NCBI GenBank assembly: GCA_964535805.1
Contig: CAZHUM010000004.1
Coordinates: 1-59,681 of the forward strand
Direction of reading: 5' to 3'
Origin: an uncultured Thermoplasmata archaeon
GTDB taxonomy: Archaea; Thermoplasmatota; Thermoplasmata; Halarchaeoplasmatales; Halarchaeoplasmataceae
Length of the DNA stretch: 59,681 bases
A program made the position numbers and the translations under genes. Every line of letters starts with the position of its first letter. Positions within the stretch are counted from its first letter, which is position 1. Shown one piece after another: positions 8,612 to 48,102 of the stretch. A model generated the notes under the pieces. It saw only the letters and a program-made list of their open reading frames with translations. It was not told the DNA's origin and ran no database searches.

Positions 8612-8652
8612 GCAGTATTGGATATCTATATATTAGTTCCTTACATTTAAAT

Positions 8653-9489: not shown

Positions 9490-9572
9490 GGACCTGGATT
9501 ATCTCTCCATTATATATTTGTTGGTTGGATTATCAAAAAGTGTTATATAAGTTCCAAATAATCCATGATCAG

Positions 9573-9959
9573 ATGCATGAATACTCTGTTATGAGTTCAT
9601 TGATCACAGCACTTCTGGAAGAACTCGAAGATAGAAAAATAAAAAAGGTCAAAACGGTCACTTTGGAGATAGGCGCTCTCACCTTCCTGGGAGAACAGCA
9701 GATGAAGTTCGCTTACGAAGCTCTCTCCATAGACACCGTGCTGGAAGGCTCCCAACTCGAAGTAAAAGAATTACCGGCTGAAATCAAGTGTCCAGGATGT
9801 GGATACGAAGGAGAAGTTAACTATGCGGACGACCCTGCATTCCATCTCCAGATACCGGTCATATCCTGCCCCGAATGCGGAGGAAAGCCCGAGATCATCC
9901 AGGGCAAGGAAACCGTGATAAAGAACATCACCGTTATGGAGGAAGAAGATGAAAGCTGA
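9573..9959 (+). CDS. hypA: Hydrogenase nickel-incorporation protein HypA
   Basis: MHEYSV N-terminus (Ni-binding MHE) and zinc motif CPGCGY...CPECGG. The track ORF begins at TTG 9525; ATG 9573 gives the canonical N-terminus. Confidence 0.9.
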   Translation: MHEYSVMSSLITALLEELEDRKIKKVKTVTLEIGALTFLGEQQMKFAYEALSIDTVLEGSQLEVKELPAEIKCPGCGYEGEVNYADDPAFHLQIPVISCPECGGKPEIIQGKETVIKNITVMEEEDES

Positions 9960-11046: not shown

Positions 11047-11051
11047 CAGAC

Positions 11052-11068
11052 AAAATATTTAAATAAAT
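11052..11068 (+). promoter_or_regulatory. TATA-box-like element upstream of the ATPase gene
   Basis: AAAATATTTAAATAAAT is centred about 27 nt upstream of ATG 11088, consistent with a short or absent leader. Confidence 0.35.
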
Positions 11069-11087
11069 AGTTTAAACTATAATAGTC

Positions 11088-12401: not shown

Positions 12402-12413
12402 GTAGAGATCATC

Positions 12414-26070: not shown

Positions 26071-26763
26071 ATGGAAAAAAAAGTTGTTGAATGGAATTGG
26101 GACAATGAAGCCAGGTTGAAACTCTTCCAAGAACTCAGAAATCTCCCAGAGAAAGTTGCCCATGAAGTCGGTGGAAAAAGTGTACTCGATGTTGGCGGTT
26201 GGGGAGGGTCGTTGGCAAATAGGATGGGATATGATTTCCCTGTCTGTGTGGATATCTCACCCCATGACAACATAAAAAAAGTTCACTATGTCCGCGGCGA
26301 TGTTCTCAGATTGCCGTTTTCAGATGAAAGTTTCGATTATGTTATAGCGAAGGCGGTACTTCACCATGTTCCAGATAACTTAGATGGAGCTTTATCAGAG
26401 CTATATAGAGTTACGAAGCGGGGAGGAACCTTACTGGTAGAAGAACCGACCAGTACCAACTTCATCGCTTCTACCGCACGTAAATTCATCACCACCACCA
26501 GTCACGATGAAGACGAGAGACCGTTGGAACCGAAAAAACTGAAAAAAATAATAGAGAAGTATTGGACTATATCCGAATTCCAACCCCATTTCTTTTTTAC
26601 CTATCTAATTCCAGAAACTATCGATTATCTCCCTCGCCCTCTAAAAAAACCCATGAGAAAGGTGATGATGGGGCTGAAGAGATTAGAGAACAATTTTCTC
26701 TTTAAAAGTGATTTCTTTTCCTACAAAGGTGCCTATGTGAGTTTCGTATGTAAAAAGAAGTGA
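26071..26763 (+). CDS. Class I SAM-dependent methyltransferase
   Basis: VLDVGGWGGS (motif I) and LPFSDESFDYVIAKAVLHHV. Confidence 0.8.
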   Translation: MEKKVVEWNWDNEARLKLFQELRNLPEKVAHEVGGKSVLDVGGWGGSLANRMGYDFPVCVDISPHDNIKKVHYVRGDVLRLPFSDESFDYVIAKAVLHHVPDNLDGALSELYRVTKRGGTLLVEEPTSTNFIASTARKFITTTSHDEDERPLEPKKLKKIIEKYWTISEFQPHFFFTYLIPETIDYLPRPLKKPMRKVMMGLKRLENNFLFKSDFFSYKGAYVSFVCKKK

Positions 26764-26764: not shown

Positions 26765-28285
26765 TCACTTATCCTCTCCTTTTATCTCATCTTTTATATA
26801 TTCGTACATCCCGCCTGGATGCAAAGACTCCATGATATATCCCCATTCTTCTTTGGTGAATTCTCTCATGAGATATAGAATGAATGTGTACATACCTAGG
26901 AATAACACAGCGTAAATACCGAGATCATAAAATCTTAAGATCGGATATATTTTATCCTCAATAGTGAACAACGTAAATCCGGTTACAGCTCCTGCTAAAA
27001 CATGGAGAACAGTCCTTGGGTACATGGTAACTCCCGCTTCTCTATTTGAATAGTATAGCACGAAAATGAACAGGAATATGCTCGATACCATAGTAGCTAG
27101 TGCCGCCCCGATCTCTCTTAACCCTAACAATTCTATTCCAAAGAGTGATGGAGGTATCAATAGTACGTTTAGACTAAAGTTCAATATATTAGCTACTATG
27201 ACTATCTTTGCACCCAATTTTGGCTTGTCGATACCTCCGAAGACACTTTTAAAAGGTCCTGAGACGACCGCGAAGAAAGCGGTTATCCCCATTATCCTGA
27301 ATAGTGGTGCTGCGGGTAGGGCACGGTCTTTCAACAGTATGTGGATTGTCTCTTCGGGGAAGACGATCAAAAAAGCTATCACTGGTATGCTCACCATACT
27401 AAGATAACGTGAACTCTCTTTCACAACACCTTTAATTTCTTCCCATGAGGAGGTCGAATGATATTCTGATATCTTTGGAAATATCACCACAGATACAGCA
27501 CTCGATATACCGATCACCATGGCTGAGAATCTCAGACTAACAGCGTAATAACCGACGTTAACAGAACTCCAGAATATCTGTACCATGACGATGTCTAGAC
27601 GATTTCCAAGCTTGTTGGTTATCTTTGTGAGCATAGATGGTAATCCGAATTTCCAGTAATCTTTTGCAAGAGACCAATTCGGTTTTTTTATTTTAACATC
27701 TTTTAAAAAATAGAGTGCTGCTATTGACATCAATAGACCACCTGCGAGGTATGTAGAAGCGTATTCTATGGCTTGACCACCTGTAATAGCAACATACACG
27801 ATAAAGATTGTAGGTACGTTATAATCCATAAAACGGATGACTTCTCTTTTTGCAATTTCCGAACGTCCTTGGAATGTAGAAACACCTAATTTACCAATGT
27901 TTTTGATGGTAACGAAACCTAAAATAATGTACAACACGGTTTCGTGGGTTTTCGATTCGAAACCCCTTCCCAATATGTATTTCCACGATAAAATCGCTCC
28001 GAATGCTAAAAGAAGCATAACAGCTACACTTATGCTAAGAAGAGAAATGTAAGTGCCCATGCATTCTCCTTCGTCCCTTCCTTCCGATAGCCTTTTAACA
28101 TGGGCATTATCGAAAAGATTGCTTATGAAATTAAATAGTCCAGCGAAAGCCAGAGCGAAATTTACTATGCCGTAATTGTACTCTGGATTGGGCATAAATT
28201 TGAAAACAAAGAAGATACCTATCATCCCGGTCACTGCACCGAATATCTGGTTGAAGTAGACCATGAACGATTTTCTGCCTATCAT
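26765..28285 (-). CDS. Polysaccharide/oligosaccharide flippase (MOP/Wzx-like polytopic membrane protein)
   Basis: 506 aa, a dozen or more hydrophobic segments, positioned at the edge of the glycan locus. Confidence 0.7.
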   Translation of the reverse strand: MIGRKSFMVYFNQIFGAVTGMIGIFFVFKFMPNPEYNYGIVNFALAFAGLFNFISNLFDNAHVKRLSEGRDEGECMGTYISLLSISVAVMLLLAFGAILSWKYILGRGFESKTHETVLYIILGFVTIKNIGKLGVSTFQGRSEIAKREVIRFMDYNVPTIFIVYVAITGGQAIEYASTYLAGGLLMSIAALYFLKDVKIKKPNWSLAKDYWKFGLPSMLTKITNKLGNRLDIVMVQIFWSSVNVGYYAVSLRFSAMVIGISSAVSVVIFPKISEYHSTSSWEEIKGVVKESSRYLSMVSIPVIAFLIVFPEETIHILLKDRALPAAPLFRIMGITAFFAVVSGPFKSVFGGIDKPKLGAKIVIVANILNFSLNVLLIPPSLFGIELLGLREIGAALATMVSSIFLFIFVLYYSNREAGVTMYPRTVLHVLAGAVTGFTLFTIEDKIYPILRFYDLGIYAVLFLGMYTFILYLMREFTKEEWGYIMESLHPGGMYEYIKDEIKGEDK

Positions 28286-28347: not shown

Positions 28348-29685
28348 TTATATTTTGCTTAAATTTACCGCTTTTATGATCTTATCTTTTTCTTTATTTT
28401 TCATAGATCTTATGTGATTCAGCAGATTTTTTTTCAATCTGATCGTATCATCGTTATAATCTGATGGAATCTTTGATTCTTCCTTTGTGTCTTTAAGTGA
28501 ATAACAAATGGCTTCATTTTCACATTCATCCATTATCACCTTGATCTTATTATCTTGTATGGAATACAATATCCTTCCTTCCCTCCTAGCCTCGCTTATG
28601 GTTGGTTTATCGAATTTCCCCGCACAAGTTTTTACCTTACCAGAATCGATTACGCACTTAGTAAATTCTATCAAATCTTTGTTGCTGAAAACCGTATCTA
28701 TCTTACCCCTTTCTTTACCATTCCATACGATCAAAGGAACATGAAGAACAGAATTGTAAATATCTCTATGACTCAACAGATCCCAATCTCCCAAGTTTTC
28801 ACCATGATCTGACGTGATAATAACTATGCTGTTATCCAATATATTATTCTTTTCTAAAAACTCGAAAAATCCTTTTAAAATGTCATCTACTTCTCTTATA
28901 CCACACTTATACATCCGCTTTATTTTCTTTATATCATTATCTGATAAACCGCTTTCGGACACATGTATATTATGATGTTTTACATGCCTAAGCCATTGGC
29001 GTTCCCAATTGGGAATCCTTTTTTCCCCGATCTTATCGAATAGATCCATGGAAAGATTGTACGGACTGTGCACTTCCATCATGTGTGCCCATAAGAACAA
29101 CGGTTTTTCTTTATCTTGTTTTGACATGAATTTTTTTATCCTACCAAACAACGATCTTGAGGACTCGTATCCAGAATAGAAAAATAACCCCATCAATCTT
29201 CCAAAGAACCTTTTACCGAATTTTAGGTTGACGTCCATGTGCTTATTTATGAACGTTAAAAATTTCTTTTTCATCGGGGTTTTATCGGTTTCCGATTTTA
29301 TTTCTCCTTCATCTGAATCACCACTCTTCTCTAATCCATCGTAAAAATAATCGAATCCTCTATCATATCCTTGAAGTCTTGTTAGATTTGCGTTGTTACT
29401 GAATCCCGCGGTGAAATATCCTAAGTCACGGAATCGGTTTGATATGAATTCTGCATGTCCTGGTATGTTGTATTTAGATCCACTGGTCTGTATATCCTCG
29501 TTTGGATACATATTTGTGAACAAGCATCTAAACGTTTGAGTTGTCGAAGGGGCTGGAGATATCGCCCTACTAAAGATGACGCTCTTCTCCATCATGGAAG
29601 TAAGAAATGGATGAGTATTTTTTTGGCCATAAGCATAGTCTGCCCGTAGGGCATCTACTGTTATTAGTATAATATTTGGTTTCAT
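28348..29685 (-). CDS. Sulfatase-domain (alkaline-phosphatase superfamily) protein, soluble, lacking the canonical C/S-x-P-x-R signature
   Basis: IILITVDALRADY metal site, SPAPSTTQTFRCLFT where SPxCxPSR is expected, and ITSDHGENLGD. Confidence 0.75.
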   Translation of the reverse strand: MKPNIILITVDALRADYAYGQKNTHPFLTSMMEKSVIFSRAISPAPSTTQTFRCLFTNMYPNEDIQTSGSKYNIPGHAEFISNRFRDLGYFTAGFSNNANLTRLQGYDRGFDYFYDGLEKSGDSDEGEIKSETDKTPMKKKFLTFINKHMDVNLKFGKRFFGRLMGLFFYSGYESSRSLFGRIKKFMSKQDKEKPLFLWAHMMEVHSPYNLSMDLFDKIGEKRIPNWERQWLRHVKHHNIHVSESGLSDNDIKKIKRMYKCGIREVDDILKGFFEFLEKNNILDNSIVIITSDHGENLGDWDLLSHRDIYNSVLHVPLIVWNGKERGKIDTVFSNKDLIEFTKCVIDSGKVKTCAGKFDKPTISEARREGRILYSIQDNKIKVIMDECENEAICYSLKDTKEESKIPSDYNDDTIRLKKNLLNHIRSMKNKEKDKIIKAVNLSKI

Positions 29686-29687
29686 GT

Positions 29688-30716
29688 TTACATTTTGTCA
29701 ATTTTTTTCCATCTATTTTTGATACTTTTTCTCAATCGGTTCCTTTTCTTTCTCTTTTCCCATTCTTTCTGAGTATCATAATTTAATAGGGATTTGAATT
29801 CGTCCAATGTTTTATAGAAACCTGTTTTCATTAAATTCGTGCTATAATCATTTTCCTTATATTCAAATTCATACCCAAGGAAGTCCATTTCTCTTGCAGT
29901 AATCTTTTCGATTATCTTTATCTGCTTTTCAGTTAAACCATCCAAATATTTCTTCATGTTGTTTTGCATTATATCTTTTGATAGATTTTTCCATGCATTG
30001 GTAGTTCCAGCTTCTTTCCGATCTTTTCCCTTTATCATCTCTGGCTCAAATTTTTCTCCTAAGAATTTACATATTTTTTTGAAAGTTTTTTCTGGTTCAC
30101 CTAATATTTCTTCATACTTAACGAGGAATATTTTTTCGTTAAATACTTCCTCTGTGAATACCCTGATACATCTCTTTTGTTCCTCCATCCAAACTAATGA
30201 AAAATTGTAGGCAGTATTTGGACCGCCTGCCCTCCTTAAATTCGATAAACATACATCCCTTGGATCCCTTACTAAATAGATGAATTTGCATTTTGGAAAG
30301 TAGTTATTCAAAGGCCATGCATATTCTACTAGATCATTGTCTTTACAGAACCATCTTTTTTTCCCCTTCTTTTCCGCGTATTTATCATGGATATAACCAA
30401 ATAAATGGATCACTGATCTTTTAGATTTTGGTATCTCATTTTTTATTGTTTCACAATCGAAATCGATGTCCCACTTATAGATGTTGACTTCCACGGATTT
30501 TATTATATCATCAACGAGTGTGTTGAAATTTTTATCTTTTTGTAGGTTTCCATAGTACGGTTCAAAATTATAAAACCAAGCCATGGTATGTACAGGAACC
30601 GGTCCAAGGATATTACTATGGTTATCCAGGCGTGTCCTTAAAAGATTTGTTCCTGATCTTTCTGATCCCATCAAAAATATAGGTCCGTTATTCATTTTTT
30701 CTCCTTGTCTCACCAA
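29688..30716 (-). CDS. Sulfotransferase family protein
   Basis: FLMGSERSGTNLLRTRL and YLVRDPRDVCLSNL. Confidence 0.85.
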   Translation of the reverse strand: MVRQGEKMNNGPIFLMGSERSGTNLLRTRLDNHSNILGPVPVHTMAWFYNFEPYYGNLQKDKNFNTLVDDIIKSVEVNIYKWDIDFDCETIKNEIPKSKRSVIHLFGYIHDKYAEKKGKKRWFCKDNDLVEYAWPLNNYFPKCKFIYLVRDPRDVCLSNLRRAGGPNTAYNFSLVWMEEQKRCIRVFTEEVFNEKIFLVKYEEILGEPEKTFKKICKFLGEKFEPEMIKGKDRKEAGTTNAWKNLSKDIMQNNMKKYLDGLTEKQIKIIEKITAREMDFLGYEFEYKENDYSTNLMKTGFYKTLDEFKSLLNYDTQKEWEKRKKRNRLRKSIKNRWKKIDKM

Positions 30717-31543
30717 TCATTATTTTTCTCGTACCCTAACTCTATAAGCCAATTTCCTATGCTTTTTTTAAATTCGTTTTTAAGTTCGGAATCGAGATGG
30801 TTTTTCCAATCACCGATTTTGCCTTTCCTGAAAGTAGAACTTCTCGGTGAATAGGTTTTATTTGATATTTTTACTATATCCTCTTCACTCAATTCTACAT
30901 TTATATGTTTTCCTATATCTGATATTACTTTTTTTTGTAATTCTTTGCTTCCTCCACCTTTAGGTCCTATTAGTTCTTCAAATTTAACCGTGTAATTAAT
31001 TGATTCATTAGTCCAAGGTATAAACATTTCCAACCATTTCTTTACTCCTTCAAATGGTTTCCCATCCTTAGTGTATTTTCCAGAAAAACCATTCAAAGAA
31101 GCTAAAATTTTTTCATTCTTATTATCTAATTTCTCATAATGGGGTCTCAACCGATGGTCCGGATGTTTTTCTGTAACCCAATGCATATGAGATATAGTAA
31201 CATCTCTAGGGTCTCTAATCATCAATATCGCTCTTATATTGTTACCCATTAGCATATTTTTATTCACATCATTATATGGTATATGACCTGAGGAATATTG
31301 ACCTTTCTTTGTTTTAGTGACCGTGTTAAAGACTTCCTTATATCCTATATGTCTATAATTCTTAATAGCGGAATGCCGATGTGATGGTCTTAACATGGGG
31401 AATTGGTGTAAACAAGTCAATAAAAGATTCGTACCTGATTTAGGAATTGAATTTGCTATTACTTTTGGTCCAGATTTTCTAGCAAATAATCTTTGTGGTG
31501 TCAATTTGCGGCACTTTTCCTTTAAATTTTTTCTAATTTCCAT
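30710..31543 (-). CDS. Sulfotransferase family protein
   Basis: ANSIPKSGTNLLLTCL and LMIRDPRDVTISHMHW. 7-nt overlap with the next gene. Confidence 0.85.
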   Translation of the reverse strand: MEIRKNLKEKCRKLTPQRLFARKSGPKVIANSIPKSGTNLLLTCLHQFPMLRPSHRHSAIKNYRHIGYKEVFNTVTKTKKGQYSSGHIPYNDVNKNMLMGNNIRAILMIRDPRDVTISHMHWVTEKHPDHRLRPHYEKLDNKNEKILASLNGFSGKYTKDGKPFEGVKKWLEMFIPWTNESINYTVKFEELIGPKGGGSKELQKKVISDIGKHINVELSEEDIVKISNKTYSPRSSTFRKGKIGDWKNHLDSELKNEFKKSIGNWLIELGYEKNNDW

Positions 31544-31583
31544 GTTTGAGTTACCTATAGCGATCTATACATTATTTTATCGT

Positions 31584-32402
31584 TCATACAAACCTTTCAA
31601 ATTTTGTGCCTCTTATTTCGTCCAATATTTCTTCTTTAATTTCCTCATCCAACTGCCATTTCCATTTTTCTTTAACCTTTTTATCTTTATATACGGAATA
31701 CGGATCAACGTGATGTTTTGATTGGGATTCAATCAAAAAATCTTCCGTTTGTTTTGTATAATCCAAACCTAGAAACCTAAATAATTCTTTTGTTTTTTGT
31801 ATTTTGTTAGAAACCAGATCTTCGTATTTTATAATCATAAATCGTTCTTCATATTTCTCTTCTAATTTCATAAACATATCCGTTACTTCTTTCCAAGCTT
31901 CAAATCCCCAGTATTCCTCTGGATGACCTTTATTTCTACATTCTCCATCTCTCCACTCTTCTTTCGGTTCTGCTCTCTCGGGAAATTCATTTGGATGCGA
32001 TAACCATGAATTAATCACCCCGCAGGGATGCCTAACGATGCCAACTGTTTTCAATTCTTCAAAATATTCCATTATCTTCAATATCAGATGATGGTATCGT
32101 ACCATCTTGATAGTTAAGAATGACGGCATATCTTTCTTTTTATCGAAAACCGGGTACAGCCCTTTTTCCTTTCTTTCACTTTGGCATAAAAAGTCGTCGT
32201 CACTGTTATATACCTTTGTAAAAAAGTGATTAAATTCTTCTTTACTTGAGTCCATATCTACAGCATCTTTAAACGCATAAGAAAATATAGGCTGGTATCT
32301 GTATCTAACATCAGGTGAACTATCGATTATTTGTCCTAACCAACTTGTTCCAGAACGCGGCACGCCAACGATGAATATTATATTTGAAAACATCATTTTC
32401 AC
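31584..32402 (-). CDS. Sulfotransferase family protein
   Basis: FIVGVPRSGTSWLGQII and GIVRHPCGVINSWL. GTG start shares 1 nt with the upstream stop (alternative ATG at 32396). Confidence 0.85.
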   Translation of the reverse strand: MKMMFSNIIFIVGVPRSGTSWLGQIIDSSPDVRYRYQPIFSYAFKDAVDMDSSKEEFNHFFTKVYNSDDDFLCQSERKEKGLYPVFDKKKDMPSFLTIKMVRYHHLILKIMEYFEELKTVGIVRHPCGVINSWLSHPNEFPERAEPKEEWRDGECRNKGHPEEYWGFEAWKEVTDMFMKLEEKYEERFMIIKYEDLVSNKIQKTKELFRFLGLDYTKQTEDFLIESQSKHHVDPYSVYKDKKVKEKWKWQLDEEIKEEILDEIRGTKFERFV

Positions 32403-33478
32403 TATCTAGATCTATATTGTGGGAAGAAATCTTTTTTAACAGTTTTTCCATTTTCTTTAGCGGTCGCTATCAATTTATTATACATTACATCATCATGTAT
32501 CAATTTTCCCATGTAGAATTCTCCACGAGTTGGTGAAAAACTCTTCTTAAATTTATATACACCTGGTCTACCCCCTTGGAAATCGAAGATATCCATACCT
32601 TGTTCTTTGCAGAACAATATCACATTGTAAAATAATAGATTGTTTATTCTCATGTCCCAATACTTTGGCATGGTGGCACTTAAAAAGTGATGTCCAACGT
32701 TGTTATCGTGAACTATAATAAAACCACCTACAACATCACCTTCGTATGTAGATATTAACAATTTTGATATGTCTTTGTTTTCTATTAATAATTCTTTAAA
32801 AAGGTCATAAGAAAATCGATAATGCTCTCCTGCATTTTTCGCTTCCATCGCGTCACTGTATATAAAAGACCAATCCTTTATTTCATCTTCGTCTTCAGTG
32901 TGCTCAATTTTTAGTTTTGTATCTTTTGCTTGTCTTACCGCTCTTCTACATCTACTTTGAAGATTTTCCCATATCTTATCTTCAGATTGGCTTAGATCAA
33001 CAAAAACGGTGTTCCGGTCATATTCTGGATTTAATCTATCAAATAACTTGTAATTCTTTAAAAGTGGATCAAATCTAACAAATTCAGATATTATATTTGA
33101 CTTATTTCTAAATGATTTGAATTCTTTATTGAATGATTTTATAAGACTGTCTTCTCCTTTGATATTAGTATTTGATGGTATAGGACCTCCATAGTACCAG
33201 GACGATACTATGTCAAAACATTTTTCGTATCCATCATTTTCATGGATAAAATCTAATTCCGTTATCGGTCTTTTATAATAAGAATAATAAACAAAATCCT
33301 TTCCATCCTCATATATCAGTAATTCTGGCCGACCGTTGAAATGATCCGCCATAAAGTGCATGTACTGAGGATTATGGTATACTCCTTTATCTTCAAGTCG
33401 ATCATAATAATCAAACCAATCATCTAATTCGTCTTCTGATAAAATTTTAAATTCGCCACACATCATTACACCTATCAA
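32402..33478 (-). CDS. FemAB-like / GNAT-fold (Acetyltransf_6-like) acyl- or aminoacyl-transferase
   Basis: C-terminal FDFQGGRPGVYKFKKSFSP pattern typical of FemAB/BioF2-like GNATs; 358 aa. Confidence 0.55.
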   Translation of the reverse strand: MIGVMMCGEFKILSEDELDDWFDYYDRLEDKGVYHNPQYMHFMADHFNGRPELLIYEDGKDFVYYSYYKRPITELDFIHENDGYEKCFDIVSSWYYGGPIPSNTNIKGEDSLIKSFNKEFKSFRNKSNIISEFVRFDPLLKNYKLFDRLNPEYDRNTVFVDLSQSEDKIWENLQSRCRRAVRQAKDTKLKIEHTEDEDEIKDWSFIYSDAMEAKNAGEHYRFSYDLFKELLIENKDISKLLISTYEGDVVGGFIIVHDNNVGHHFLSATMPKYWDMRINNLLFYNVILFCKEQGMDIFDFQGGRPGVYKFKKSFSPTRGEFYMGKLIHDDVMYNKLIATAKENGKTVKKDFFPQYRSR

Positions 33479-34470
33479 ACATAGTCAAAGCTGCTGTTCC
33501 TGTATCTCTTATCAGTCCAATCGTAGTCTTCGCTCTCAAATCTATCGATGATATCTCTTATACCTTCCTCTACCGTCCAGTCAACTTCCCACCCGATTAT
33601 ATTCTTGATTTTATGACAATTTATTGAATAATCTCTTCGATCCGTATCTTTATCTCTTAGATACTCGATCTCAGTATCTGGCAGTACCTTTTTTACAGTT
33701 TCTGCGATCTCACCCACAGTTCTGTTATTTTTCTTATCCCCGACGTGGAAGGTCTCATTATCCCTCATAAATCTTGGTGATTCTAACACATCTACGAAGG
33801 CTTTTGCCACGTCTTTTACGTGTACCAGTGACCTGTACTGGGATCCGTCACCGTATATCGTGATCTTTCCATCTTTCCAAGCTTTGTAGGAAAATAAGTT
33901 AGTCACTAAATCTAATCTCGGTCTTTTAGACCAACCGAACACAGTTGAAAGCCGAAGTATCGTCGGATGGAAGTGTGGGACTTCTTTACCTCTATCTAAT
34001 ATTATGTTCTCTGATCTCAATTTTGCATTGGCATACGCGGATAATGGATGTGTAGGTGTCCCCTCTTTAACCTCTGAATACATACCGTGGACATTGCCGT
34101 AAACGGAACATGATGATGAATAGATAAAGTCTCTCGTAAGATCCAGTGCTGGATCGGTACAGCAGTTGATCAATGTTCTAGTGCTCTCAACGTTTATAGA
34201 AAAGTGAGCTTTTGGGTTCTTTAAACAAGCTGCCTCACCAACAATACCTGCAAGGTGCAGTACTGCTTCGGCATCTTCGAGAGCATATATAACATCCTTA
34301 GAATTCCTGCAATCCCCCTCTACTACCGTAATATCATCTGAGAAGGGTTCTATTGCATCTTTTCCCCAGAAAAATGCATCGAATACGATCGGGTGATGCC
34401 CGTGTTTTATTAGTTCTTCAACTACGTTAGATCCTATATATCCTGCTCCTCCAGTAACTAATACATTCAT
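33475..34470 (-). CDS. NAD-dependent nucleotide-sugar epimerase/dehydratase (extended SDR)
   Basis: VLVTGGAGYIGS Rossmann motif and catalytic YANAK. Confidence 0.9.
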   Translation of the reverse strand: MNVLVTGGAGYIGSNVVEELIKHGHHPIVFDAFFWGKDAIEPFSDDITVVEGDCRNSKDVIYALEDAEAVLHLAGIVGEAACLKNPKAHFSINVESTRTLINCCTDPALDLTRDFIYSSSCSVYGNVHGMYSEVKEGTPTHPLSAYANAKLRSENIILDRGKEVPHFHPTILRLSTVFGWSKRPRLDLVTNLFSYKAWKDGKITIYGDGSQYRSLVHVKDVAKAFVDVLESPRFMRDNETFHVGDKKNNRTVGEIAETVKKVLPDTEIEYLRDKDTDRRDYSINCHKIKNIIGWEVDWTVEEGIRDIIDRFESEDYDWTDKRYRNSSFDYV

Positions 34471-34479
34471 TTTATCACT

Positions 34480-35679
34480 CTAGATTTCATGTAGTACTTC
34501 AACAACCTTATCCAATTCTCCTTTTTTAAGTTTTGGATGATTTGGTAAACCCAGCATTTTACCGGCGATCTCTTCCGTATTAGGATATTCGAACTGAGAA
34601 TAATCTATCTCTTTTCCATAGTAAGGACAGGAAAACGGACATCTATTTGGGTATGCATTCTGTTCCAACAACATCTTTTGCTGGTTCATAGGTGAAACAT
34701 ATCTATGCCTTGTTTCCACACCCAAATCGATCAGTTTTGACCTTAATTCCTTTGTCTCCATATCTAATTTTTCTTCATCTACTTGTATGGGACACCAGAA
34801 GAATGCTGGCTTGACATAAGGTTCGATCTCCGGTATTATTATCCAGTCGATATCGTCTATCCTATCATAGATATAATAAGAATTATCCTTTCTTTTTTTG
34901 TTGAATTCATCCAATTTTCTCAATTGAACGAGACCTATAGCTGCTTCAAATTCATTCATCCTGTAATTATACCCGAGTAGTTCGTGTGTATCTCTGTCCG
35001 ACATACCATGACTCCTTATCTTTCTGGATAGGTCCGCTATTTTTTTGTCATCTGTCAAAATTATCCCCCCCTCACCAGTAGTCATGTTTTTTGTCGCGAA
35101 AAACGAAAAGCAGGAACTATCACCTATGCTGCCAACTTTTTTACCTCTGTACTCAGCCCCGTGAGCTTGAGCACAATCTTCGATAACGATGAGATCATTC
35201 TCCTTCGCTATATCCATTATCTTATCCATTTCGGCAGGATTCCCATAAAGATGAACGGGTATGATGGCTTTTGTTTTATCGGTAATACGATCTTCAATGT
35301 CCGCCGGACTTATATTGTACGATTTTTTATCGATATCCGCGAATATCGGAATGGCATTTTGATGTATCACTGCAGTTGCAGTGGAGAAAAATGTAAGAGC
35401 AGGTACTATCACTTCGTCTCCTGGACCTATTCCATAAGCAGCCAATGCTATATGTATTGCAGCTGTACCTGAATTCGTAGCAACTGCATATTCAGTTCCA
35501 CAATAATCTGAAAATCTCTTTTCAAACTCTTTTACCTTAGGGCCACTGACGTAATACCCAGAGTATAGAACCTCTTCTAGTGCTTTCAATTCTTCTTCAT
35601 CCACCGAAGGCTCTGCAACATTGATCTTATCCATAATATCATCCATATATCTTATATTTAAAAATCTTTGGTTATCCAT
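34480..35679 (-). CDS. DegT/DnrJ/EryC1/StrS-family sugar aminotransferase
   Basis: NSGTAAIHIAL, IIEDCAQAHGA and FSFFATKNMTTGEGG (PLP-Lys). Confidence 0.9.
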   Translation of the reverse strand: MDNQRFLNIRYMDDIMDKINVAEPSVDEEELKALEEVLYSGYYVSGPKVKEFEKRFSDYCGTEYAVATNSGTAAIHIALAAYGIGPGDEVIVPALTFFSTATAVIHQNAIPIFADIDKKSYNISPADIEDRITDKTKAIIPVHLYGNPAEMDKIMDIAKENDLIVIEDCAQAHGAEYRGKKVGSIGDSSCFSFFATKNMTTGEGGIILTDDKKIADLSRKIRSHGMSDRDTHELLGYNYRMNEFEAAIGLVQLRKLDEFNKKRKDNSYYIYDRIDDIDWIIIPEIEPYVKPAFFWCPIQVDEEKLDMETKELRSKLIDLGVETRHRYVSPMNQQKMLLEQNAYPNRCPFSCPYYGKEIDYSQFEYPNTEEIAGKMLGLPNHPKLKKGELDKVVEVLHEI

Positions 35680-36811
35680 CTGTTATTTCTTTTAATCTCT
35701 TTACAAAAACTTCATTGTAAATATCTCTATTAAATATTTTATCCATCTTCTCATTACTTACATAAGTTTCTTTGGGATCATAATACGCTTCTTTCAACTT
35801 ATTAGAGATCTCAGCTGGATCATCTTCATCTGCCAAGTATCCTAATTTGAACTTACCTGCATAGAAGTTTACTTTATATCCCTTCTTTGTCAGAAATAAA
35901 ATGTCCGATCTCGAAACTATGTAATCCCAAAACTTTGAATGGATCATCTTTTTATTAGATTTTCCTGAACCTGTGATATACATCAATAGGTCAGAACCTT
36001 TCATTATCGATATTATCTCGTTGGTTTCCACGTATCCGTTTATATCAATATATTCAGATAATCCAAGTTCCTTAATTAATTTTAAATTCTTTTCGTCCAT
36101 CCCCTTTTGATAGAACAATATTTGAATATCTTCGGGGGTTAATTTTGTACGTACAACGAATCTCTTGAATCCTCTTAGAAAATTACTCGGTTCGATCCAT
36201 CCATTGTAGAAACGTCCAGCGTAGGTTATAGTATATTTTTCGAATTCTTTGGGGCTTATATCTTTAAACTTCTCTAGGTCATATCCTTGATATGACGTTA
36301 ACTTGACTTTATCTCCCATACCATAATTTATCTCGAAGTATTCATCGCTACACTGGCTGCCTTTACCTTTCAAGATAAGGTCAGAATTTATAACTGTCGG
36401 CCCCTCTATCAATCTATTTAATTTTCTAGTCGCAGGGTACTTCATCGAAAAATAAGGTTCCTCGCACATCGCATCACGGAACTCTGCTACCCAATATATA
36501 TCAGATCCAAACTTCTTTAAAATCAAGCCTGGGATGTGCAGATATGACGGTGAATTCATGGTACATACTATATTTTTATCATCACCATTAAAAAATTCTT
36601 TGATCCACATCGATACAATGAAGGATTTGATAAAAACGTACAACATCTTGAATAGGTCATTATCGCTATCCGGCTCATTCAAAACAAATGTTTTTACATT
36701 CCAACCCTCCTTCTTAATTGCTCTAAATCTAGACCTCATCTTTTCGTTTCGACCACTTTTGTTTTCGATGTCGCTTTTTAAGACCATGGCTACTTTTACC
36801 ATTTGTACCAC
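35672..36811 (-). CDS. Hypothetical protein, possibly a divergent GT-B-fold glycosyltransferase
   Basis: Two-lobed alpha/beta-like pattern (ITYAGRFYNGW...LKLIKELGLSEYIDINGYV...) within the glycan operon. No EX7E motif seen. Confidence 0.4.
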   Translation of the reverse strand: MVQMVKVAMVLKSDIENKSGRNEKMRSRFRAIKKEGWNVKTFVLNEPDSDNDLFKMLYVFIKSFIVSMWIKEFFNGDDKNIVCTMNSPSYLHIPGLILKKFGSDIYWVAEFRDAMCEEPYFSMKYPATRKLNRLIEGPTVINSDLILKGKGSQCSDEYFEINYGMGDKVKLTSYQGYDLEKFKDISPKEFEKYTITYAGRFYNGWIEPSNFLRGFKRFVVRTKLTPEDIQILFYQKGMDEKNLKLIKELGLSEYIDINGYVETNEIISIMKGSDLLMYITGSGKSNKKMIHSKFWDYIVSRSDILFLTKKGYKVNFYAGKFKLGYLADEDDPAEISNKLKEAYYDPKETYVSNEKMDKIFNRDIYNEVFVKRLKEITDG

Positions 36812-36820: not shown

Positions 36821-37780
36821 TCATCTACAAATTGCAGATGTTATATAACCTATACTCCATGCTAAGTTGATAAGATTCAATACGACCCAGGCTTTTATTG
36901 TGATGATAAAACCAGCCTCATCAATATTGTTATGCATCAATTTACCGAGATATATCAGAGTTAAGATCAACCCCAGTATCAGTATAATAAAGAGATAAGA
37001 AAAGATGAAGGGTACAAATAAAAAAATCAATATCAGTATCCCAACAAGCGGATAGAACCGACTCCACTCCTTCCACCCCTTCCTGCCTTTATGTTCCTTC
37101 AACAACCAGTACTCCCTTTTGCCGATGTTGTATTCCCTCCTCATCACGGATCTCAACGTCTGAGGATCTTTATGATATGCCACTGCATCTTCGTTCAATA
37201 TCACTTTCCACCCCGCGTCTGACATCTTCCACGAGATATCCTTATCGGCACTCACCTTGGCATCCGCCAGACCGCCTACGTCCTCCAGAGCCTCACGGCG
37301 GTAGGCAGAACAACCTCCCTGTATCCAGTCGGCTTCTCTCTCTTCGTTTTTCCTCAGCTTGTAGAATATCTCGTTAAGCACACCGTAGGCATCGGTTACC
37401 CATCCTTCGCCCACGGATTTGAGTATCCCTCCTACAGCCCCTACTTCTTTATCGTCAAAAGTTCTGACGATCTCCATCATAAAATCGGGCTCTAGAATCT
37501 CATCAGCGTCAACCACAAGGACGATCTCTCCAGAGCTCTTCTTTACACCGCCTTTCCTGGCTTTTTTTATGCCAACATGGGGTGTTTTATACATCTTTAT
37601 ATCCATGTATTTAGAATAGCTTTTCACAACATGAGATGAATCATCCGTCGAACCGTCGTCCACCGCTATGATCTCGAAATTGGTGTATGTCTGGTCCTTT
37701 ATAGAATCTAAACATTCTTCAAGGTTGTCTTCCTCGTTGTAGAAGTTCAATATTATCGAGACCGGTGAGTTCTTTTCCAA
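36821..37780 (-). CDS. Glycosyltransferase family 2 with a C-terminal membrane anchor
   Basis: VSIILNFYNEE, AVDDGSTDDS and VVDADE (DxD), plus C-terminal hydrophobic helices. Confidence 0.85.
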   Translation of the reverse strand: MEKNSPVSIILNFYNEEDNLEECLDSIKDQTYTNFEIIAVDDGSTDDSSHVVKSYSKYMDIKMYKTPHVGIKKARKGGVKKSSGEIVLVVDADEILEPDFMMEIVRTFDDKEVGAVGGILKSVGEGWVTDAYGVLNEIFYKLRKNEEREADWIQGGCSAYRREALEDVGGLADAKVSADKDISWKMSDAGWKVILNEDAVAYHKDPQTLRSVMRREYNIGKREYWLLKEHKGRKGWKEWSRFYPLVGILILIFLFVPFIFSYLFIILILGLILTLIYLGKLMHNNIDEAGFIITIKAWVVLNLINLAWSIGYITSAICR

Positions 37781-37863
37781 CTTCTTACACCTGACACCAC
37801 AAATATCTCATGGTATTATAAAATTATTCATGCCCCCAAACTATATTATAAAGTTCAATTTAT

Positions 37864-38679
37864 ATGGCTGAACAGATGCTCATCAGCATAATAATCACGG
37901 TAAAGAACGAGGAGCGTGACATGCCCGATCTATTGGACAGTCTGGTAGTCCAAGAAGGTCCGATTGAGGTGATCGTTGTAGATGCACACAGCGATGACAG
38001 GACCCAGGAAATAGTAAGAAAATATTCTGATGAGTACGATTTTGTTCATTTATATATACAGGGTGGAACAAGAGGTAAGGGCCGCAACTACGGTGCGAAG
38101 AAAGCCAAAGGAGAACTACTTGGTTTCATAGACGGGGACGAGATCGTGAATCCTTTCTGGGCAAAGGAGATAAGAAAGACGGCTAAAAAGTACGATATCG
38201 TTGCCGGCAAAACGATCCAGATCGGTTATCACGCCTTCGAGAAGCTGGAGAGGGTAGAACTGATACACAAAGGGTACGACGTCACGTATCCAAGCTGCAA
38301 TCTCGTTTACCACAAAAAAGTATTCAGGAAGATAGGCGGGTTCGACCCTTGGTTTCAAACTGCCGAGGATATCGATCTAAATTATAGAGCGGTGGAATCG
38401 GGTGCCACAATCGGTCATAACGAGAACGCCATCGTTTATCACAGAACCAGGGGGAGTTTCTTCGGCTTCTTCAAACAGGCGTTCTGGAACGGATTCGGCA
38501 GGAAGCAGCTCACCATGAAGCACGGTAAGTTGTGGAGTGAATACTCTCCCGGGGATATGATAAGGCACAAACTCACTTTCTGGTACGGCTTGAGGATGAT
38601 CCCGGCTTTCGCAGGATACATCGCATGTAAATTCTGGGGGACCAGACCGGGTGAATCCGATAAACCTCTGAAAAAATGA
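37864..38679 (+). CDS. Glycosyltransferase family 2
   Basis: ISIIITVKNEE, VVDAHSDDRT and FIDGDE. Confidence 0.85.
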   Translation: MAEQMLISIIITVKNEERDMPDLLDSLVVQEGPIEVIVVDAHSDDRTQEIVRKYSDEYDFVHLYIQGGTRGKGRNYGAKKAKGELLGFIDGDEIVNPFWAKEIRKTAKKYDIVAGKTIQIGYHAFEKLERVELIHKGYDVTYPSCNLVYHKKVFRKIGGFDPWFQTAEDIDLNYRAVESGATIGHNENAIVYHRTRGSFFGFFKQAFWNGFGRKQLTMKHGKLWSEYSPGDMIRHKLTFWYGLRMIPAFAGYIACKFWGTRPGESDKPLKK

Positions 38680-38728
38680 GAATAGATAGGAAATTATTAT
38701 AAAGGACCTTACTTTGAAAGGTGTTGTC

Positions 38729-39403
38729 ATGAAAGTATCTGTTGTAATACCCACAATGAACGAAGAAGAGTCAATCGGAGAGGTCATGGACGAGACCAAT
38801 CAGGCCTTATCGGGTAGAGATTACGAAGTGCTGATAGTCGATACGGAATCCACCGATAAGACGAGAGAGATAGCTAGAGCGAAAGGTGCACGAGTTATAG
38901 ACGAACCCAGGAGGGGATACGGTCGTGCATATAAGACGGGATTCGAAAAAGCCAGGGGTGAGATAATCGCTACATTGGATGCTGACTGCACCTACCCGGC
39001 AAAGGACATTCCCAAGATGGTGATAATGATAGAGGTGGAGGGCTACGACTTTATCACTACCGATCGATTGTCCAACGTGTCTTCAGATGCTATGACCGCA
39101 AAACACAGATTCGGTAACTGGGTGTTGAAGACGACAGCGAACATACTTTTCGGGATACATCTAAAAGATTCTCAATCCGGGATGTGGGTTTTTAAAAAAT
39201 CGGCACTGAGACACATGCATCTGACCAGCGACGGCATGCCCTTTTCCGAGGAGATCAAGATCGAAGCTGTAAAGAAGGGGCTGCATTATGCGGAAGTCCC
39301 GATCAATTTGAGACAGCGTAAGGGAGAAGCTAAGATACAGTCCTGGGGGGACGGCTGGAAGAACTTCAAGTTCTTATTCAAGAAGAGATTCGGGGGAGTG
39401 TAG
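38729..39403 (+). CDS. GT2 dolichyl-phosphate hexose synthase-like glycosyltransferase (DPM1/AglD/AglJ-like)
   Basis: VSVVIPTMNEEESI, LIVDTESTDKT and LDADCTY; about 225 aa soluble type. The track ORF starts at TTG 38714; ATG 38729 preferred. Confidence 0.8.
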   Translation: MKVSVVIPTMNEEESIGEVMDETNQALSGRDYEVLIVDTESTDKTREIARAKGARVIDEPRRGYGRAYKTGFEKARGEIIATLDADCTYPAKDIPKMVIMIEVEGYDFITTDRLSNVSSDAMTAKHRFGNWVLKTTANILFGIHLKDSQSGMWVFKKSALRHMHLTSDGMPFSEEIKIEAVKKGLHYAEVPINLRQRKGEAKIQSWGDGWKNFKFLFKKRFGGV

Positions 39404-40103: not shown

Positions 40104-43100
40104 TTAGGTCTGTTCAGAATCGATTACATCATCGTTCTCATCTATTTCTAACATCTCTTCTCCTGATCCATCAAAGTCTTCGGGTTCCGATGTTTCTTCG
40201 TAATCTCCTTCGAAATCTTCTTCGTAAAGCTCTTCATCTTCTGCCATTTCTACATGAGGAGCACCGATTTTCCAGTAAGCGAGTCCGATAAGTACTAACA
40301 ATATCAACAGTGCAGCCAATGCGTAGAAGAGGTTCGTTTTGTACACTGGTATCGGATATCCACCGAACTCTACCTTTTCTTCCCCGGTCGAAGATAACGT
40401 GACTTCTTTACTCTCATCTAGGTCGACCTCCGTTAACATGTATGTTGTTTTAAATGCAGCTTTTATGGTGTAATCGTCCCCAGCCGGTAGTTTGAAAGTA
40501 TATTCTCCGTTCTCGGTGTATCCACTCCAAATCCTATCACCGCTTTCAACTACGACATATACGCCGGAAAGTTTCCCGTCTGTATCTTCGGTTACCACCG
40601 TCAAATAATAAACATCGCTCCGAGCATCAAGATGCCAGCTTTCCTCACTGTTAGTGACGTTGACCGTGTCTTCATATATCGGGCTGCCAAGCCATGTAAC
40701 ATAGATATCCCATTCTGAAGCGGGTATCCTAAACGTGACCCGACCGTTCTCATCGGAGTAATTAGACTCATAAAGTTTATCTCTATCCAGATAGGAAACT
40801 CTGATCAATGCATCTTCGAGAGTTTGTTGATCATCGTCCAAAACATCTACTGTAAGATAATACACGTTTCCCTGTACATCCATCGTCGCGTCTCCATCTA
40901 GGTTTATAATCTCGTTGTGTATCTTTATGTCGTTCCAGAACACAGTGATCGTTTGTTCCCCGCGAGGCGATCTCATTACAACACTGCCGTTTCCGTCGGT
41001 CAAATATCTTGCTAGTGTGTTACTTCCCAGAGGCAGTTCCGAATGTAGGTTCTTGATGAGAGCTTTTTCTATAGGTACTCCTTCGACGTCTGTTATCTTG
41101 TATTCAATGTAGTATATCTGTAGATTTATATCCATATGATCGGGTGACAGTATGGATTCCGATACTGTTATACTGGATTCGAACACATTAACGTTCTTCC
41201 AATGGACTAGCAGATCAACTGTCCCGTCCGAATCGAATGGAGTAGGTGTTCTGAAGGAGAAATAGCCGTTCTCGTCACTTACACCGGAAATCAGGTTCTT
41301 TCCGTATACGCTCACATCGACCGACGCACTGTTGACCGTTTCACCTCTTGAATCCACGAATCTGAGAGTTACATAATATACATCGACCGCATTTATGGTG
41401 TACGTTCCAGAGTGATCCACAGTTATGTCCGAATCGTATATATTTACACCTTTCCACGTAACGATGAATCGGTGTGTTTCACCGGGCAGCCTCGCTTGAG
41501 CCAACCCGTTCTCATCGGTTATATCCGAATCCATAAACGCTCCATGGTGATAGATCTCTATCTCACCACCAGATATAACGATATCCTGGCTGTCCAAAAG
41601 TTCGATATCTAGATGATATACACTGGTGGCTATGGTCTTATTATCATTGTCGGTTATGGATAATGAATCGTGGTAAACCTCGATATTTTTCCAATAGGCA
41701 TACACATCGATGGAAACCCCTGGCAATCTAGATTCCGGTGTGTTACCGTCTGCATCCGTCACAACGCTGTTCAACCTATCAGTCCCAAGAATATATTCGA
41801 TCCTGGCGTTCTCCAAAGGCTCGCCTACGTCGTCCACCGCTTTTATCGATAGATAATATACTTCACATGATATATCCATATCACCATTCGCATCCAGAGT
41901 GGTGCTCTGAGAATATACCTCCGCACCCTTCCAGCTAACTGTGATGTCAACATTCGAACCAGGCAGGCGTGCATAGGCTTCACCGTTTTCGTTGGATACG
42001 TTGCTGTACAAGATACCAGCCGATGGATGTTCGACGGATATTCTTCCGTTCTCTAGAGGAATTTCCCTGCTATCTACAAGCCTGAACGTTATGTGATAAA
42101 CACTACACTGTATCTGTACCTCCGGCATACCCGCCTGTACCGTTATTCCTGCTGTACCTACAAGGACACCTCGCCAGTACGCTTCTATGGTGTGGTCTCC
42201 CAAAGGCAATCTGATGGTAACGTCTCCGGAGTCGTCCGTCTCTCCACTGTTTGCGAAAGCGTCCGTTTCATCGGTATATGCCGCTAGCAGTACGTTCTCA
42301 AGGTCTTCACTGAGCGAATCGTCGGTGTGGAAATCAACGTAGTATATCTCCAAAACGACCACTTCGCTCCTGTTATCTGTTAAATCCCAATTCGAAACAT
42401 TTCCAACGTTCACTCCGTGCCATCTAAACGTGAGATTGTAACCGAAGCCGCTCTCCGTCCACGGCAGCCTAAAGGTGACGTTACCTTCGTTGTCCGTCAG
42501 GTCAGCGTCTGCTGTACTCTGGGTATCGTTGAACGTGACGATGGTGTGAACATCGGGCACCGCGACATCATTTTGGTCCTTAGTCGTTACCGTCAAGTAA
42601 TATATGTTCCCGTTTATGGTGAACTGGTCGTTGGAATCTACACGGTGTACCGTAGAATTGACCTCTCTGCCCAGCCATTCAGTTTTTATAGAATAATTTC
42701 CTATCGGTAATTGATCGATAGATGCATATCCAGATTTATCCGTTATCGCTTTTAGCAGGGTTCCGTTCGGATGACCGATGAACAGGTTAGCGCTGTTTAC
42801 TCCCTTGTGTGCAGAATCAAGAACCTTGTACTGAGGGTAGAATACGTCGCAGTTCAAAGTCACTGGATTGTTCCATGTTACATCCATATCGACTTCGATG
42901 ACGGTTTCGTTGACTAATACGTCCTGCCAATAGACCTCGATGCTGTAATTACCTCCTCTCAGTGTGATATTAAGATAACCGGTTTCGTTGGTGTAGTTAT
43001 GTGTAACGTATACGCCAACTTGAGAATCGATCTCGACCCTAGCACCATCCAAGGGGTTGTCCATGGAATCGATGGTCTTGAAATTAACGAAATACAGTTT

Positions 43101-48001: not shown

Positions 48002-48102
48002 ATTATTCCCTCTTTTTTCATAAGAATGAAGATAGCTATTTAGGTTATTTATGGTACGACTATCGAACAATATCCGATATCTTTCTTAAAATAATCACTA
48101 AT

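Follow-up and report, generated by a model that had tools for sequence, protein, structure and literature searches.

Classical sulfotransferases and a sulfatase-fold protein side by side in a glycan-assembly operon of an uncultured Thermoplasmata archaeon

Sulfated surface glycans are thought to aid archaea in high salt. In Halobacterium salinarum, sulfation of the N-glycan requires VNG1056C (Agl30) and VNG1057C (Agl31), which are annotated as sulfatase or alkaline-phosphatase-like proteins (PMC11980604). Their best structural matches are S1 sulfatases, and they are not members of the families Sulfotransfer_1 or Sulfotransfer_3 (Zaretsky et al., mBio 2025, PMC11980604). Either protein, when introduced into Haloferax volcanii, leads to sulfation of a glycan that is normally unsulfated in that species. 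No other enzymes have so far been tied to N-glycan sulfation in archaea. Sulfation by Agl30 and Agl31 comes after completion of the lipid-linked glycan and before it is flipped; 3′-phosphoadenosine 5′-phosphosulfate (PAPS) is unmentioned, and the donor is unstated (PMC11980604). For Hfx. volcanii, sulfation of a lipid-linked sugar has been proposed to be necessary for translocation (PMC3892788); the family of Agl7 is not given in the papers on this species. The Hbt. salinarum glycan is also transiently methylated. According to a 2024 review, archaeal sulfotransferases of the Pfam type have yet to be characterized, and Thermoplasma glycans carry a C–S sulfonate rather than a sulfate ester (PMC11625862). 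Literature searches returned nothing usable on how Thermoplasmatota activate sulfate or on sulfatase-like transferases of the Thr type. Here, we analyzed a 59,681-nucleotide stretch of DNA from an uncultured salt-lake Thermoplasmata archaeon (GenBank assembly GCA_964535805.1, contig CAZHUM010000004.1), hereafter the window, and in it a block of three sulfotransferase genes (ST_C, ST_D, and ST_E) and one sulfatase-like gene (ThrAP).

Archaeal glycan-sulfation clusters were already known; what is new here is the presence of classical sulfotransferases and an Agl30/31-like enzyme in one operon. We consider it fairly probable that the region at 26.7 to 39.4 kb directs cytoplasmic assembly of a lipid-linked oligosaccharide, with a cassette of PAPS-dependent sulfotransferases and with ThrAP acting as a transferase. 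Like Agl30 and Agl31, ThrAP is a sulfatase-fold protein of the alkaline-phosphatase superfamily whose gene belongs to a glycan-assembly cluster that includes a flippase gene, and its best structural matches are S1 sulfatases; like Agl31, it is soluble. Unlike the Halobacterium cluster, for which no Sulfotransfer_1/3 genes are reported, the operon in the window has three, and the organism is a member of the Thermoplasmatota rather than a haloarchaeon. By this analogy, a gene that a preliminary description of the window had treated as accessory may have the closest link of all to the enzymes known to sulfate archaeal glycans. That description also called the enzymes of archaeal glycan sulfation largely uncharacterized, a statement that is out of date for Agl30 and Agl31 (2025, PMC11980604), which are sulfatase-fold proteins and not of the Sulfotransfer_1/3 type.

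The sulfotransferases and the sulfatase-fold protein

The window holds two glycan islands, one at 135 to 6154 (island 1) and one at 26.7 to 39.4 kb (island 2). Five sulfotransferase open reading frames (ORFs) and the sulfatase-like ORF were found where the preliminary description had placed them. We read family assignments, motifs, synteny, base composition, and solubility directly from the sequences, and the Pfam and NCBIfam scans covered window ORFs of at least 150 aa. Island 2 contains a minus-strand operon that begins with a GT2 glycosyltransferase (GT2a), a 379-aa protein, a DegT aminotransferase, an SDR epimerase/dehydratase, and a FemAB/GNAT-like transferase and continues with ST_E, ST_D, ST_C, ThrAP, and, as its last gene, a Wzx/MurJ-like flippase. 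Intergenic gaps in this operon range from −8 to +62 nt. A methyltransferase gene, two more GT2 genes, and the genes for two giant proteins lie beside it. Island 1 consists of ST_A, ST_B and a CE4 deacetylase-like gene sharing one base, a GT4 gene, a radical-SAM/SPASM gene, and a second GT4 gene.

All five sulfotransferase ORFs, including the two that had been assigned to island 1, scored 55 to 107 bits against Pfam gathering cutoffs of 22 to 27 (Sulfotransfer_1, PF00685, or Sulfotransfer_3, PF13469), in agreement with their earlier placement in sulfotransferase families. Near its N terminus, each has a 5′-phosphosulfate-binding (PSB) loop (GAQKSGTTAL, GCPRTGTTWL, GSERSGTNLL, IPKSGTNLL, and GVPRSGTSWL). 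A canonical 3′-phosphate-binding (PB) motif is present in ST_A, ST_C, ST_D, and ST_E (RNPVDRAYS, RDPRDVCLS, RDPRDVTIS, and RHPCGVINS), and ST_B has a variant without proline, QRDIIDKIKS. ST_A thus combines KSGTT and RNPVDRAYS with KEVHYFD, and ST_D combines PKSGTNLL with RDPRDVTIS. The three genes of island 2 had been described as abutting or overlapping and as carrying both loops. They do abut, and both loops are present, but the first motif as it had been given misfits ST_C, which reads E-R-SGT rather than S/P-x-SGT. The overlap at 30710 to 30716 is probably not real, since the gene call puts the likely start of ST_C at an ATG at 30695, which would leave ST_C and ST_D separate. Exact-match look-ups of ST_E and ThrAP gave no record, and that of ST_D gave only the metagenome contig itself. 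Judged by family scores and motifs, all five ORFs genuinely belong to the sulfotransferase families of the PAPS type.

The most similar pair in pairwise BLASTP comparisons was ST_B and ST_C, with 23% identity over 319 aa; most pairs aligned at the motifs only. These comparisons support the view, also taken in the preliminary description, that the five are mutually divergent and not recent duplicates; they are old lineages. The closest solved structures also differ. ST_A matched the heparan sulfate (HS) type of enzyme (PDB 3rnl, 9.4e-27; HS 3-OST-1, 4.4e-21; the NST domain of NDST, 1.2e-19), ST_C matched the CurM sulfotransferase (4gbm, 3.4e-13) and the tyrosylprotein sulfotransferase TPST (about 2e-5), and ST_D weakly matched the cytosolic enzyme SULT2A1 (2e-4); matches were weak for ST_B and at the level of the PSB loop only for ST_E. 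Such different relatives fit different acceptors or positions, in keeping with the earlier suggestion of several sulfation positions or substrates. The ST_C family is small, comprising 42 clusters with archaeal and Bacteroidota names.

ST_A resembles HS 3-OST, NDST, and 3rnl in its E values (1e-19 to 1e-27), PSB loop, PB motif, and E-x-H-(Y/F)-F-D segment, and the CE4 gene two genes away recalls the deacetylase-plus-sulfotransferase logic of NDST. Unlike HS 3-OST and NDST, however, the window enzymes are soluble, single-domain proteins with no Golgi-type anchor, and the separate deacetylase is coupled to ST_B, not to ST_A. ST_A, ST_B, and the CE4 gene have GC contents of 26.6%, 25.9%, and 27%, with third-position GC (GC3) of about 22%, some 20 points under the housekeeping genes of the window; 135 to 2881 is the most foreign-looking DNA of the window.

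None of the five sulfotransferases has a hydrophobic segment, nor does ThrAP, so all six proteins are predicted to be cytoplasmic. A six-frame motif search of the window found no signature of ATP sulfurylase, APS kinase, CysD, or CysQ, and the scanned ORFs included no sulfate-activation family; the window had already been described as lacking sulfate-activation genes.

ThrAP shares its PF00884 membership, a two-domain fold, and the Asp and Asp-His metal ligands with S1 sulfatases such as choline sulfatase, BT1918 (7oz8), and the phosphonate monoester hydrolases. An AlphaFold (AF2) model of ThrAP (mean predicted local distance difference test score [pLDDT], 80.3; predicted template modeling score [pTM], 0.83) was compared with other folds using Foldseek, and the best matches were S1 sulfatases, choline sulfatase, and phosphonate monoester hydrolases, with template modeling (TM) scores of 0.6 to 0.67. 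In the HMMER alignment, T48-T-Q-T-F52 of ThrAP aligns with S-T-P-A-R of sulfatase 7oz8. Thr48 replaces the Cys or Ser that becomes formylglycine, Phe52 replaces Arg, and His306 replaces the sulfate-binding Lys of 7oz8, whereas D11, D293, and H294, which serve as metal ligands, are retained. All 17 aligned ThrAP homologues, haloarchaeal and bacterial ones included, agree at T48, D11, H206, D293, H294, and H306; F52 and H306 are invariant within the tight ThrAP subfamily. Among 80 loci fetched with the ThrAP-subfamily profile, a sample biased by the search patterns, Thr occupies the nucleophile position in 115 of 117 sulfatase-like ORFs, and all 117 keep the metal ligands.

Unlike the S1 sulfatases, ThrAP lacks both the C/S-x-P-x-R motif and a signal peptide, and no maturase gene occurs in the window. 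There is no transmembrane segment either (maximum 19-residue Kyte-Doolittle mean, 0.71). Formylglycine cannot form without C/S-x-P-x-R. We conclude from the sequence that ThrAP, although it has the fold of a sulfatase, cannot work as one that depends on formylglycine. The label “sulfatase-like” in the preliminary description, read as a statement about catalysis, is therefore not borne out: the signature is absent, with T-T-Q-T-F and His306 in its place. More generally, “sulfatase” as a routine annotation is misleading for the Thr-type clade. The only radical-SAM/SPASM gene of the window (4074 to 5075) was considered as a sulfatase maturase and rejected; its top NCBIfam matches were AhbC, NirJ, and AhbD, all far below the cutoffs, and anSME was not among the matches listed.

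In its Thr nucleophile and metal-ligand set, ThrAP also resembles EptA, MCR, and LtaS. The Thr nucleophile, Asp, Asp-His, and distal His (T48, D11, D293-H294, H206, and H306) match the MCR-1/EptA pattern, in keeping with the residue ranges of the NCBIfam matches to these families. Unlike these enzymes, ThrAP has no N-terminal multihelix membrane domain, and its NCBIfam matches to EptA (residues 16 to 63) and to the MCR families (residues 216 to 322) are weak, at 15 to 30 bits against cutoffs of 500 to 1250.

Conserved core, inserted cassette, and related loci

The tight ThrAP subfamily comprises 13 clusters with 38 to 59% identity, after which there is a sharp drop to ordinary “sulfatases.” In a profile scan of genome contigs, its only named genome was a soda-lake Thermoplasmata metagenome-assembled genome (MAG), designated L003; the other loci are likewise referred to by number. 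The ThrAP relatives share a chromosomal site, between an H+-PPase/Rpb7/Spt4 block and the genes for ribulose-5-phosphate (Ru5P) epimerase and CCA enzyme. The island in L003 is minimal: it has homologues of the giant proteins adjoining it, Ru5P epimerase, GT2c (81% identity), GT2b (78%), another GT2, ThrAP (41%), the flippase (58%), and the methyltransferase (52%). Counterparts of the 379-aa protein and of the DegT, SDR, FemAB-like, ST_E, ST_D, and ST_C genes are all missing there. L085 has GT2a, GT2b, GT2c, ThrAP, and the flanks in common with the window, and GT2b and GT2c, at 78 to 81% identity to their L003 and L085 counterparts, are conserved core genes. L083 and L089 each combine ThrAP and the flippase with another sulfatase-like gene, of 419 aa, and with either one or two sulfotransferase genes. 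ThrAP is kept in L085, L083, L087, and L089, the flippase also in three of these, and the remaining genes vary; flippase orthologues in L003, L083, L087, and L089 are 47 to 58% identical. Since ThrAP is found in every such island, usually next to the flippase, we assign it to the conserved core and regard the sulfotransferases as accessory.

Base composition follows the same division. The GC content is 32 to 39% over 28 to 37 kb, versus 44 to 48% in the flanks. ST_C, ST_D, ST_E, and the FemAB-like gene have 32 to 34% (GC3, 25 to 33%), compared with 44 to 47% for the giants and the core GT2 genes and 47 to 53% for housekeeping genes. By gene content and composition, ST_C, ST_D, and ST_E belong to a strain-specific, seven-gene cassette of low GC content that interrupts a conserved core as an insertion. 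The preliminary description had presented the three sulfotransferases as a block of the operon. They are indeed embedded in it, but as a low-GC cassette with no counterpart in L003 they are not an ancestral feature of it. The best-supported reading of the sequence comparisons is that the cassette is horizontally exchanged and is partly common to bacterial polysaccharide loci.

The block was contiguous, without joints that skip the cassette, in four DNA sequencing runs of one microbial-mat study. A cassette-less variant was sought in the source population, and none was present in these four runs. A search for expression evidence found the block in DNA runs only and in no RNA run. Within GT2a, at 36900 to 37360, the metagenome assembly splits into two alleles of about equal depth (e.g., 9.8 and 10.4, versus 20.4 for the cassette contig). 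This split suggests that strain microdiversity begins at the boundary between cassette and core and that both strains keep the cassette.

Parallels to the cassette occur in bacterial loci. A homologue of ST_C with 58% identity is encoded in L090, a bacterial-type locus of 29% GC, in a module of flippase, two sulfotransferase, and FemAB-like genes together with DegT and a third sulfotransferase. The Chloroflexota MAG loci L054 and L057 have four sulfotransferase genes (three in tandem) and a sulfatase-like gene without the formylglycine motif in Wzx/Wzy clusters. All three loci resemble the window in having tandem Sulfotransfer_3/1 genes homologous to ST_B, ST_C, and ST_E, with flippase, GT4, FemAB-like, and DegT genes; unlike the window, they are bacterial and have Wzy, Wzz, or Bac_transf genes. 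Unlike ThrAP, the sulfatase-like protein of L057 (598 to 19987) and L054 (9968 to 18969) has Ser and not Thr, with W-S-L-P-C-H instead of C/S-x-P-x-R, and L090 has no sulfatase-like gene. L057 also encodes an NPP-type phosphodiesterase, a heparinase II/III-like protein, and a PMT_2 protein.

Of the 80 fetched loci of the broad Thr-type clade, 33 have GT2, GT4, or flippase genes. Sulfotransferases of the ST_A type (34 to 35% identical) recur beside Thr-type sulfatase-like genes in three loci (L083, 10001 to 13354; L056, 10001 to 13337; L033, 7524 to 10987). The order ThrAP, GT4, ST_A-like is found in both a Thermoplasmatota MAG and an Anaerolineae MAG, and in an Actinomycetota MAG, an ST_A-type gene is flanked on both sides by Thr-type genes. 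The 419-aa sulfatase-like gene (PF00884 and SGSH_C; L083, 8643 to 9902; L087, 7389 to 8648; L089, 5095 to 6354) is the immediate, divergently oriented neighbor of ThrAP in L083 and L089. In L087, the two genes share a strand, and the 419-aa gene is about 1.3 kb upstream of ThrAP. Neither the window nor L003 contains this gene. The L087 island (620 to 13111) encodes LicD, nucleotidyltransferases, a phosphoenolpyruvate (PEP) mutase fusion, a thiamine pyrophosphate (TPP)-dependent decarboxylase, and an aminotransferase, which together make up a 2-aminoethylphosphonate pathway. The position of this pathway beside two Thr-type sulfatase-like genes and a flippase suggests a phosphonate-decorated glycan. 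The only GRDHAG motif match in the related loci, in L041, was considered as a sulfate-activation gene and rejected, being in a short antisense ORF.

Proposed pathway and alternatives

We place the sulfotransferases of island 2 in a glycan pathway because they are soluble and are tightly packed in an operon that ends with a flippase. The conserved core of this pathway would consist of the GT2 glycosyltransferases, ThrAP, the Wzx-like flippase, and the methyltransferase. The SDR and DegT enzymes of the cassette would make an amino sugar, which the FemAB/GNAT-like enzyme would N-acylate, and the PAPS-dependent enzymes ST_C, ST_D, and ST_E would esterify as many as three distinct positions with sulfate. 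ThrAP would modify the lipid-linked glycan just before flipping, as a ping-pong transferase that adds an anionic group by way of a covalent Thr48 intermediate. Sulfate is the first guess for this group, by analogy with Agl31, and a phospho-group is the second. Island 1, with its two further sulfotransferases and CE4 deacetylase, might serve another glycan or another part of the same one. Acceptors, step order, donor, and the direction of the ThrAP reaction are what we infer from these data.

The finished glycan would end up on the two neighboring giant proteins. These have 33 and 27 N-x-S/T sequons, versus about 15 expected from composition, and their sequon density, 2.1 to 2.5 per 100 aa, is about five times that of other ORFs (0.41). 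Each has an N-terminal signal or anchor segment and a C-terminal transmembrane helix, and we regard them as the probable glycan acceptors. The preliminary description had referred to giant, sequon-rich envelope proteins, which is accurate for the two at 40104 to 48070; a third giant ORF, at 15358 to 19560, encodes a cytoplasmic TPR protein. The tail of giant A (40104 to 40270) extends about 55 residues past the C-terminal helix, is cytoplasmic and extremely acidic, and places tyrosines in surroundings like those of classic sulfation sites (EDEELYEEDFEGDYEE). The tail of giant B is short and basic.

A different role for ThrAP would be that of a hydrolase, either an editing sulfatase or phosphatase that strips a transient group from the lipid-linked glycan or a housekeeping partner of the sulfotransferases that hydrolyzes 3′-phosphoadenosine 5′-phosphate (PAP), the inhibitory by-product of sulfotransfer. 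PF00884 membership, an S1-sulfatase-like fold, and an intact metal site would all suit such an enzyme, and members of the alkaline-phosphatase superfamily with a Ser or Thr nucleophile are often phosphatases or phosphodiesterases. The gene lies directly downstream of those for three PAP-producing enzymes, with a gap of 2 nt; however, L003 retains ThrAP and the flippase without a sulfotransferase, so there is no dependence on local PAP or sulfate esters. Transient modification of a glycan has a precedent in the methylation seen in Hbt. salinarum, but it would be futile for a cytoplasmic sulfatase to cleave esters that have only just been made. ThrAP has other residues in place of the Arg and Lys with which true sulfatases bind sulfate, and the sulfatase-fold proteins of an agl cluster that have been tested genetically add sulfate. 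We consider a hydrolase unlikely and regard ThrAP as more likely a transferase acting before flipping.

A transferase need not transfer sulfate. ThrAP could be a soluble analogue of the EptA/LtaS domain that transfers phosphoethanolamine, phosphoglycerol, or phosphonate, with sulfation left to the PAPS enzymes alone. Its T-x-x-[ST]-F-x-x-L-F-T motif and the His 12 residues past D-H presumably resemble those of phosphoethanolamine transferases, but the matches to the EptA and MCR families that point the same way reach 15 to 30 bits where cutoffs are 500 or more, and the top-ranking structural matches come from S1 sulfatases rather than from EptA or LtaS. There is no membrane domain with which to reach a phospholipid donor. 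L087 pairs ThrAP with an aminoethylphosphonate pathway and LicD, although LicD already explains phosphonate transfer there. Taken together, these points make a phospho-group transferase quite improbable. More improbable still is that some or all of the sulfotransferases act away from the glycan, on small molecules, lipids, or protein tyrosines. This would fit the nearest solved relatives of ST_C, the CurM polyketide sulfotransferase (3.4e-13) and the tyrosylprotein sulfotransferases (about 2e-5), and the likeness of ST_D to cytosolic small-molecule sulfotransferases; the acidic cytoplasmic tail of giant A, with the sequence EELYEEDFEGDYEE, would be a candidate substrate. Those structural similarities of ST_C and ST_D are weak, however, and reflect a common PAPS-binding core, whereas ST_A is clearly of the carbohydrate type, the closest homologue of ST_C lies in the same kind of polysaccharide module (L090), and the genes are embedded, and probably cotranscribed, between sugar-modifying genes and the flippase.

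Several observations weigh against assembly of a sulfated lipid-linked glycan with ThrAP as a transferase. The likeness of ThrAP to Agl31 rests on fold, superfamily, solubility, and context, not on sequence alignment; a search from P0034, a Halarchaeum relative, returned haloarchaeal “sulfatases” of at least 51% identity, with no Hbt. salinarum protein among the matches listed. PAPS-type sulfotransferases occur in only 6 of the 80 loci of the broad Thr-type clade, with 2 to 4 in each, and a motif search of the fetched loci found no linked sat or cysC. L087 has ThrAP, its 419-aa partner, the flippase, the aminoethylphosphonate pathway, and LicD, with no sulfotransferase in view. ThrAP itself has a low GC content (35%), is 38 to 46% identical to its orthologues, and may have been exchanged with the cassette. 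Finally, aglB is absent from the window, and N-linkage of the island 2 glycan is assumed.

The transferase reading of ThrAP can be carried further, to one glycan with two sulfation chemistries, in which three PAPS enzymes act alongside ThrAP and its sulfo-threonine intermediate. The retention of ThrAP with the flippase even without a classical sulfotransferase would then point to an ancestral “anionic capping” step that licenses translocation, and the Thr-type clade would be a third class of sulfotransferase. We hold this extension to be doubtful. If it is correct, the capping role would be the one that sulfation was proposed to play for the low-salt glycan of Hfx. volcanii, and a very large clade in Bacteria and Archaea (T-x-P-S-H or T-x-x-S-F) would be an unrecognized third class of carbohydrate sulfotransferase.

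The operon puts PAPS-type sulfotransferases and an Agl30/31-like sulfatase-fold enzyme side by side, next to probable glycoprotein substrates, and natural relatives separate the two enzyme types, with the sulfatase-fold enzyme kept where classical sulfotransferases are missing. It is thus a compact system of six soluble proteins for asking which type of enzyme sulfates what. The answer bears on whether the Thr-type “sulfatases” annotated in their thousands in public databases are transferases.

Other features of the window

Coordinates of the features are listed in Table 1. The amino-sugar module gave NCBIfam matches of the PseC/ArnB/LegC-like and GalE/RmlB-like kinds. Over 111 aa, the 379-aa protein that heads the cassette shares 44% identity with the product of a weak Glycos_transf_1 (GT-B-type) gene in L087. 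Island 2 has a flippase and contains no polymerase or chain-length regulator.

Table 1. Positions of the sulfotransferases, ThrAP, and associated features in the window
Feature	Coordinates	Strand	Family evidence and remarks
ST_A, heparan-sulfate 3-O-/N-sulfotransferase type	135..998	-	Pfam Sulfotransfer_1 8.8e-18
ST_B	1089..1979	+	Pfam Sulfotransfer_3 1.6e-30; shares 1 nt with CE4 gene
CE4 polysaccharide-deacetylase-like gene	1979..2881	+	Pfam Polysacc_deac_1 5e-06; GC 27%; predicted to be cotranslated with ST_B
GT4, radical-SAM/SPASM, and GT4 triad of island 1	2887..6154	-	Pfam
SAM-dependent methyltransferase, neighbor of flippase	26071..26763	+	Pfam Methyltransf_11 3.1e-15; orthologue in L003 with 52% identity
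Wzx/MurJ-like glycan flippase, last gene of operon	26765..28285	-	Pfam Polysacc_synt_3 3.7e-18, MurJ, MatE
ThrAP, soluble sulfatase-fold enzyme, putative Thr48 nucleophile	28348..29685	-	PF00884 Sulfatase 1.1e-35
ST_C, CurM-ST/TPST-like	29688..30716	-	Pfam Sulfotransfer_3 1.5e-25
ST_D, cytosolic-SULT-like	30710..31543	-	Pfam Sulfotransfer_1 1e-14
ST_E, remote subtype	31584..32402	-	Pfam Sulfotransfer_3 1.3e-20, Sulfotransfer_1 2.9e-18
Amino-sugar module: FemAB/GNAT-like acyl/aminoacyl transferase, SDR epimerase/dehydratase, DegT aminotransferase	32402..35679	-	Pfam
379-aa protein, upstream end of cassette	35672..36811	-	no Pfam or NCBIfam match
Three GT2 glycosyltransferases	36821..39403	GT2a -, GT2b and GT2c +	Pfam Glycos_transf_2
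Two giant membrane-anchored, sequon-rich surface proteins	40104..48070	-	CarboxypepD_reg and Big_1 repeats

Like the 379-aa protein, the ORF at 7685 to 8611 (308 aa) had no Pfam or NCBIfam match, and the ORF at 55848 to 56498 (216 aa) had no Pfam match. The ORF at 6273 to 7688 strongly matches L-lysine 6-transaminase (TIGR03251, 649 bits, above the cutoff) and sits between glycan island 1 and an asparaginase-like gene.

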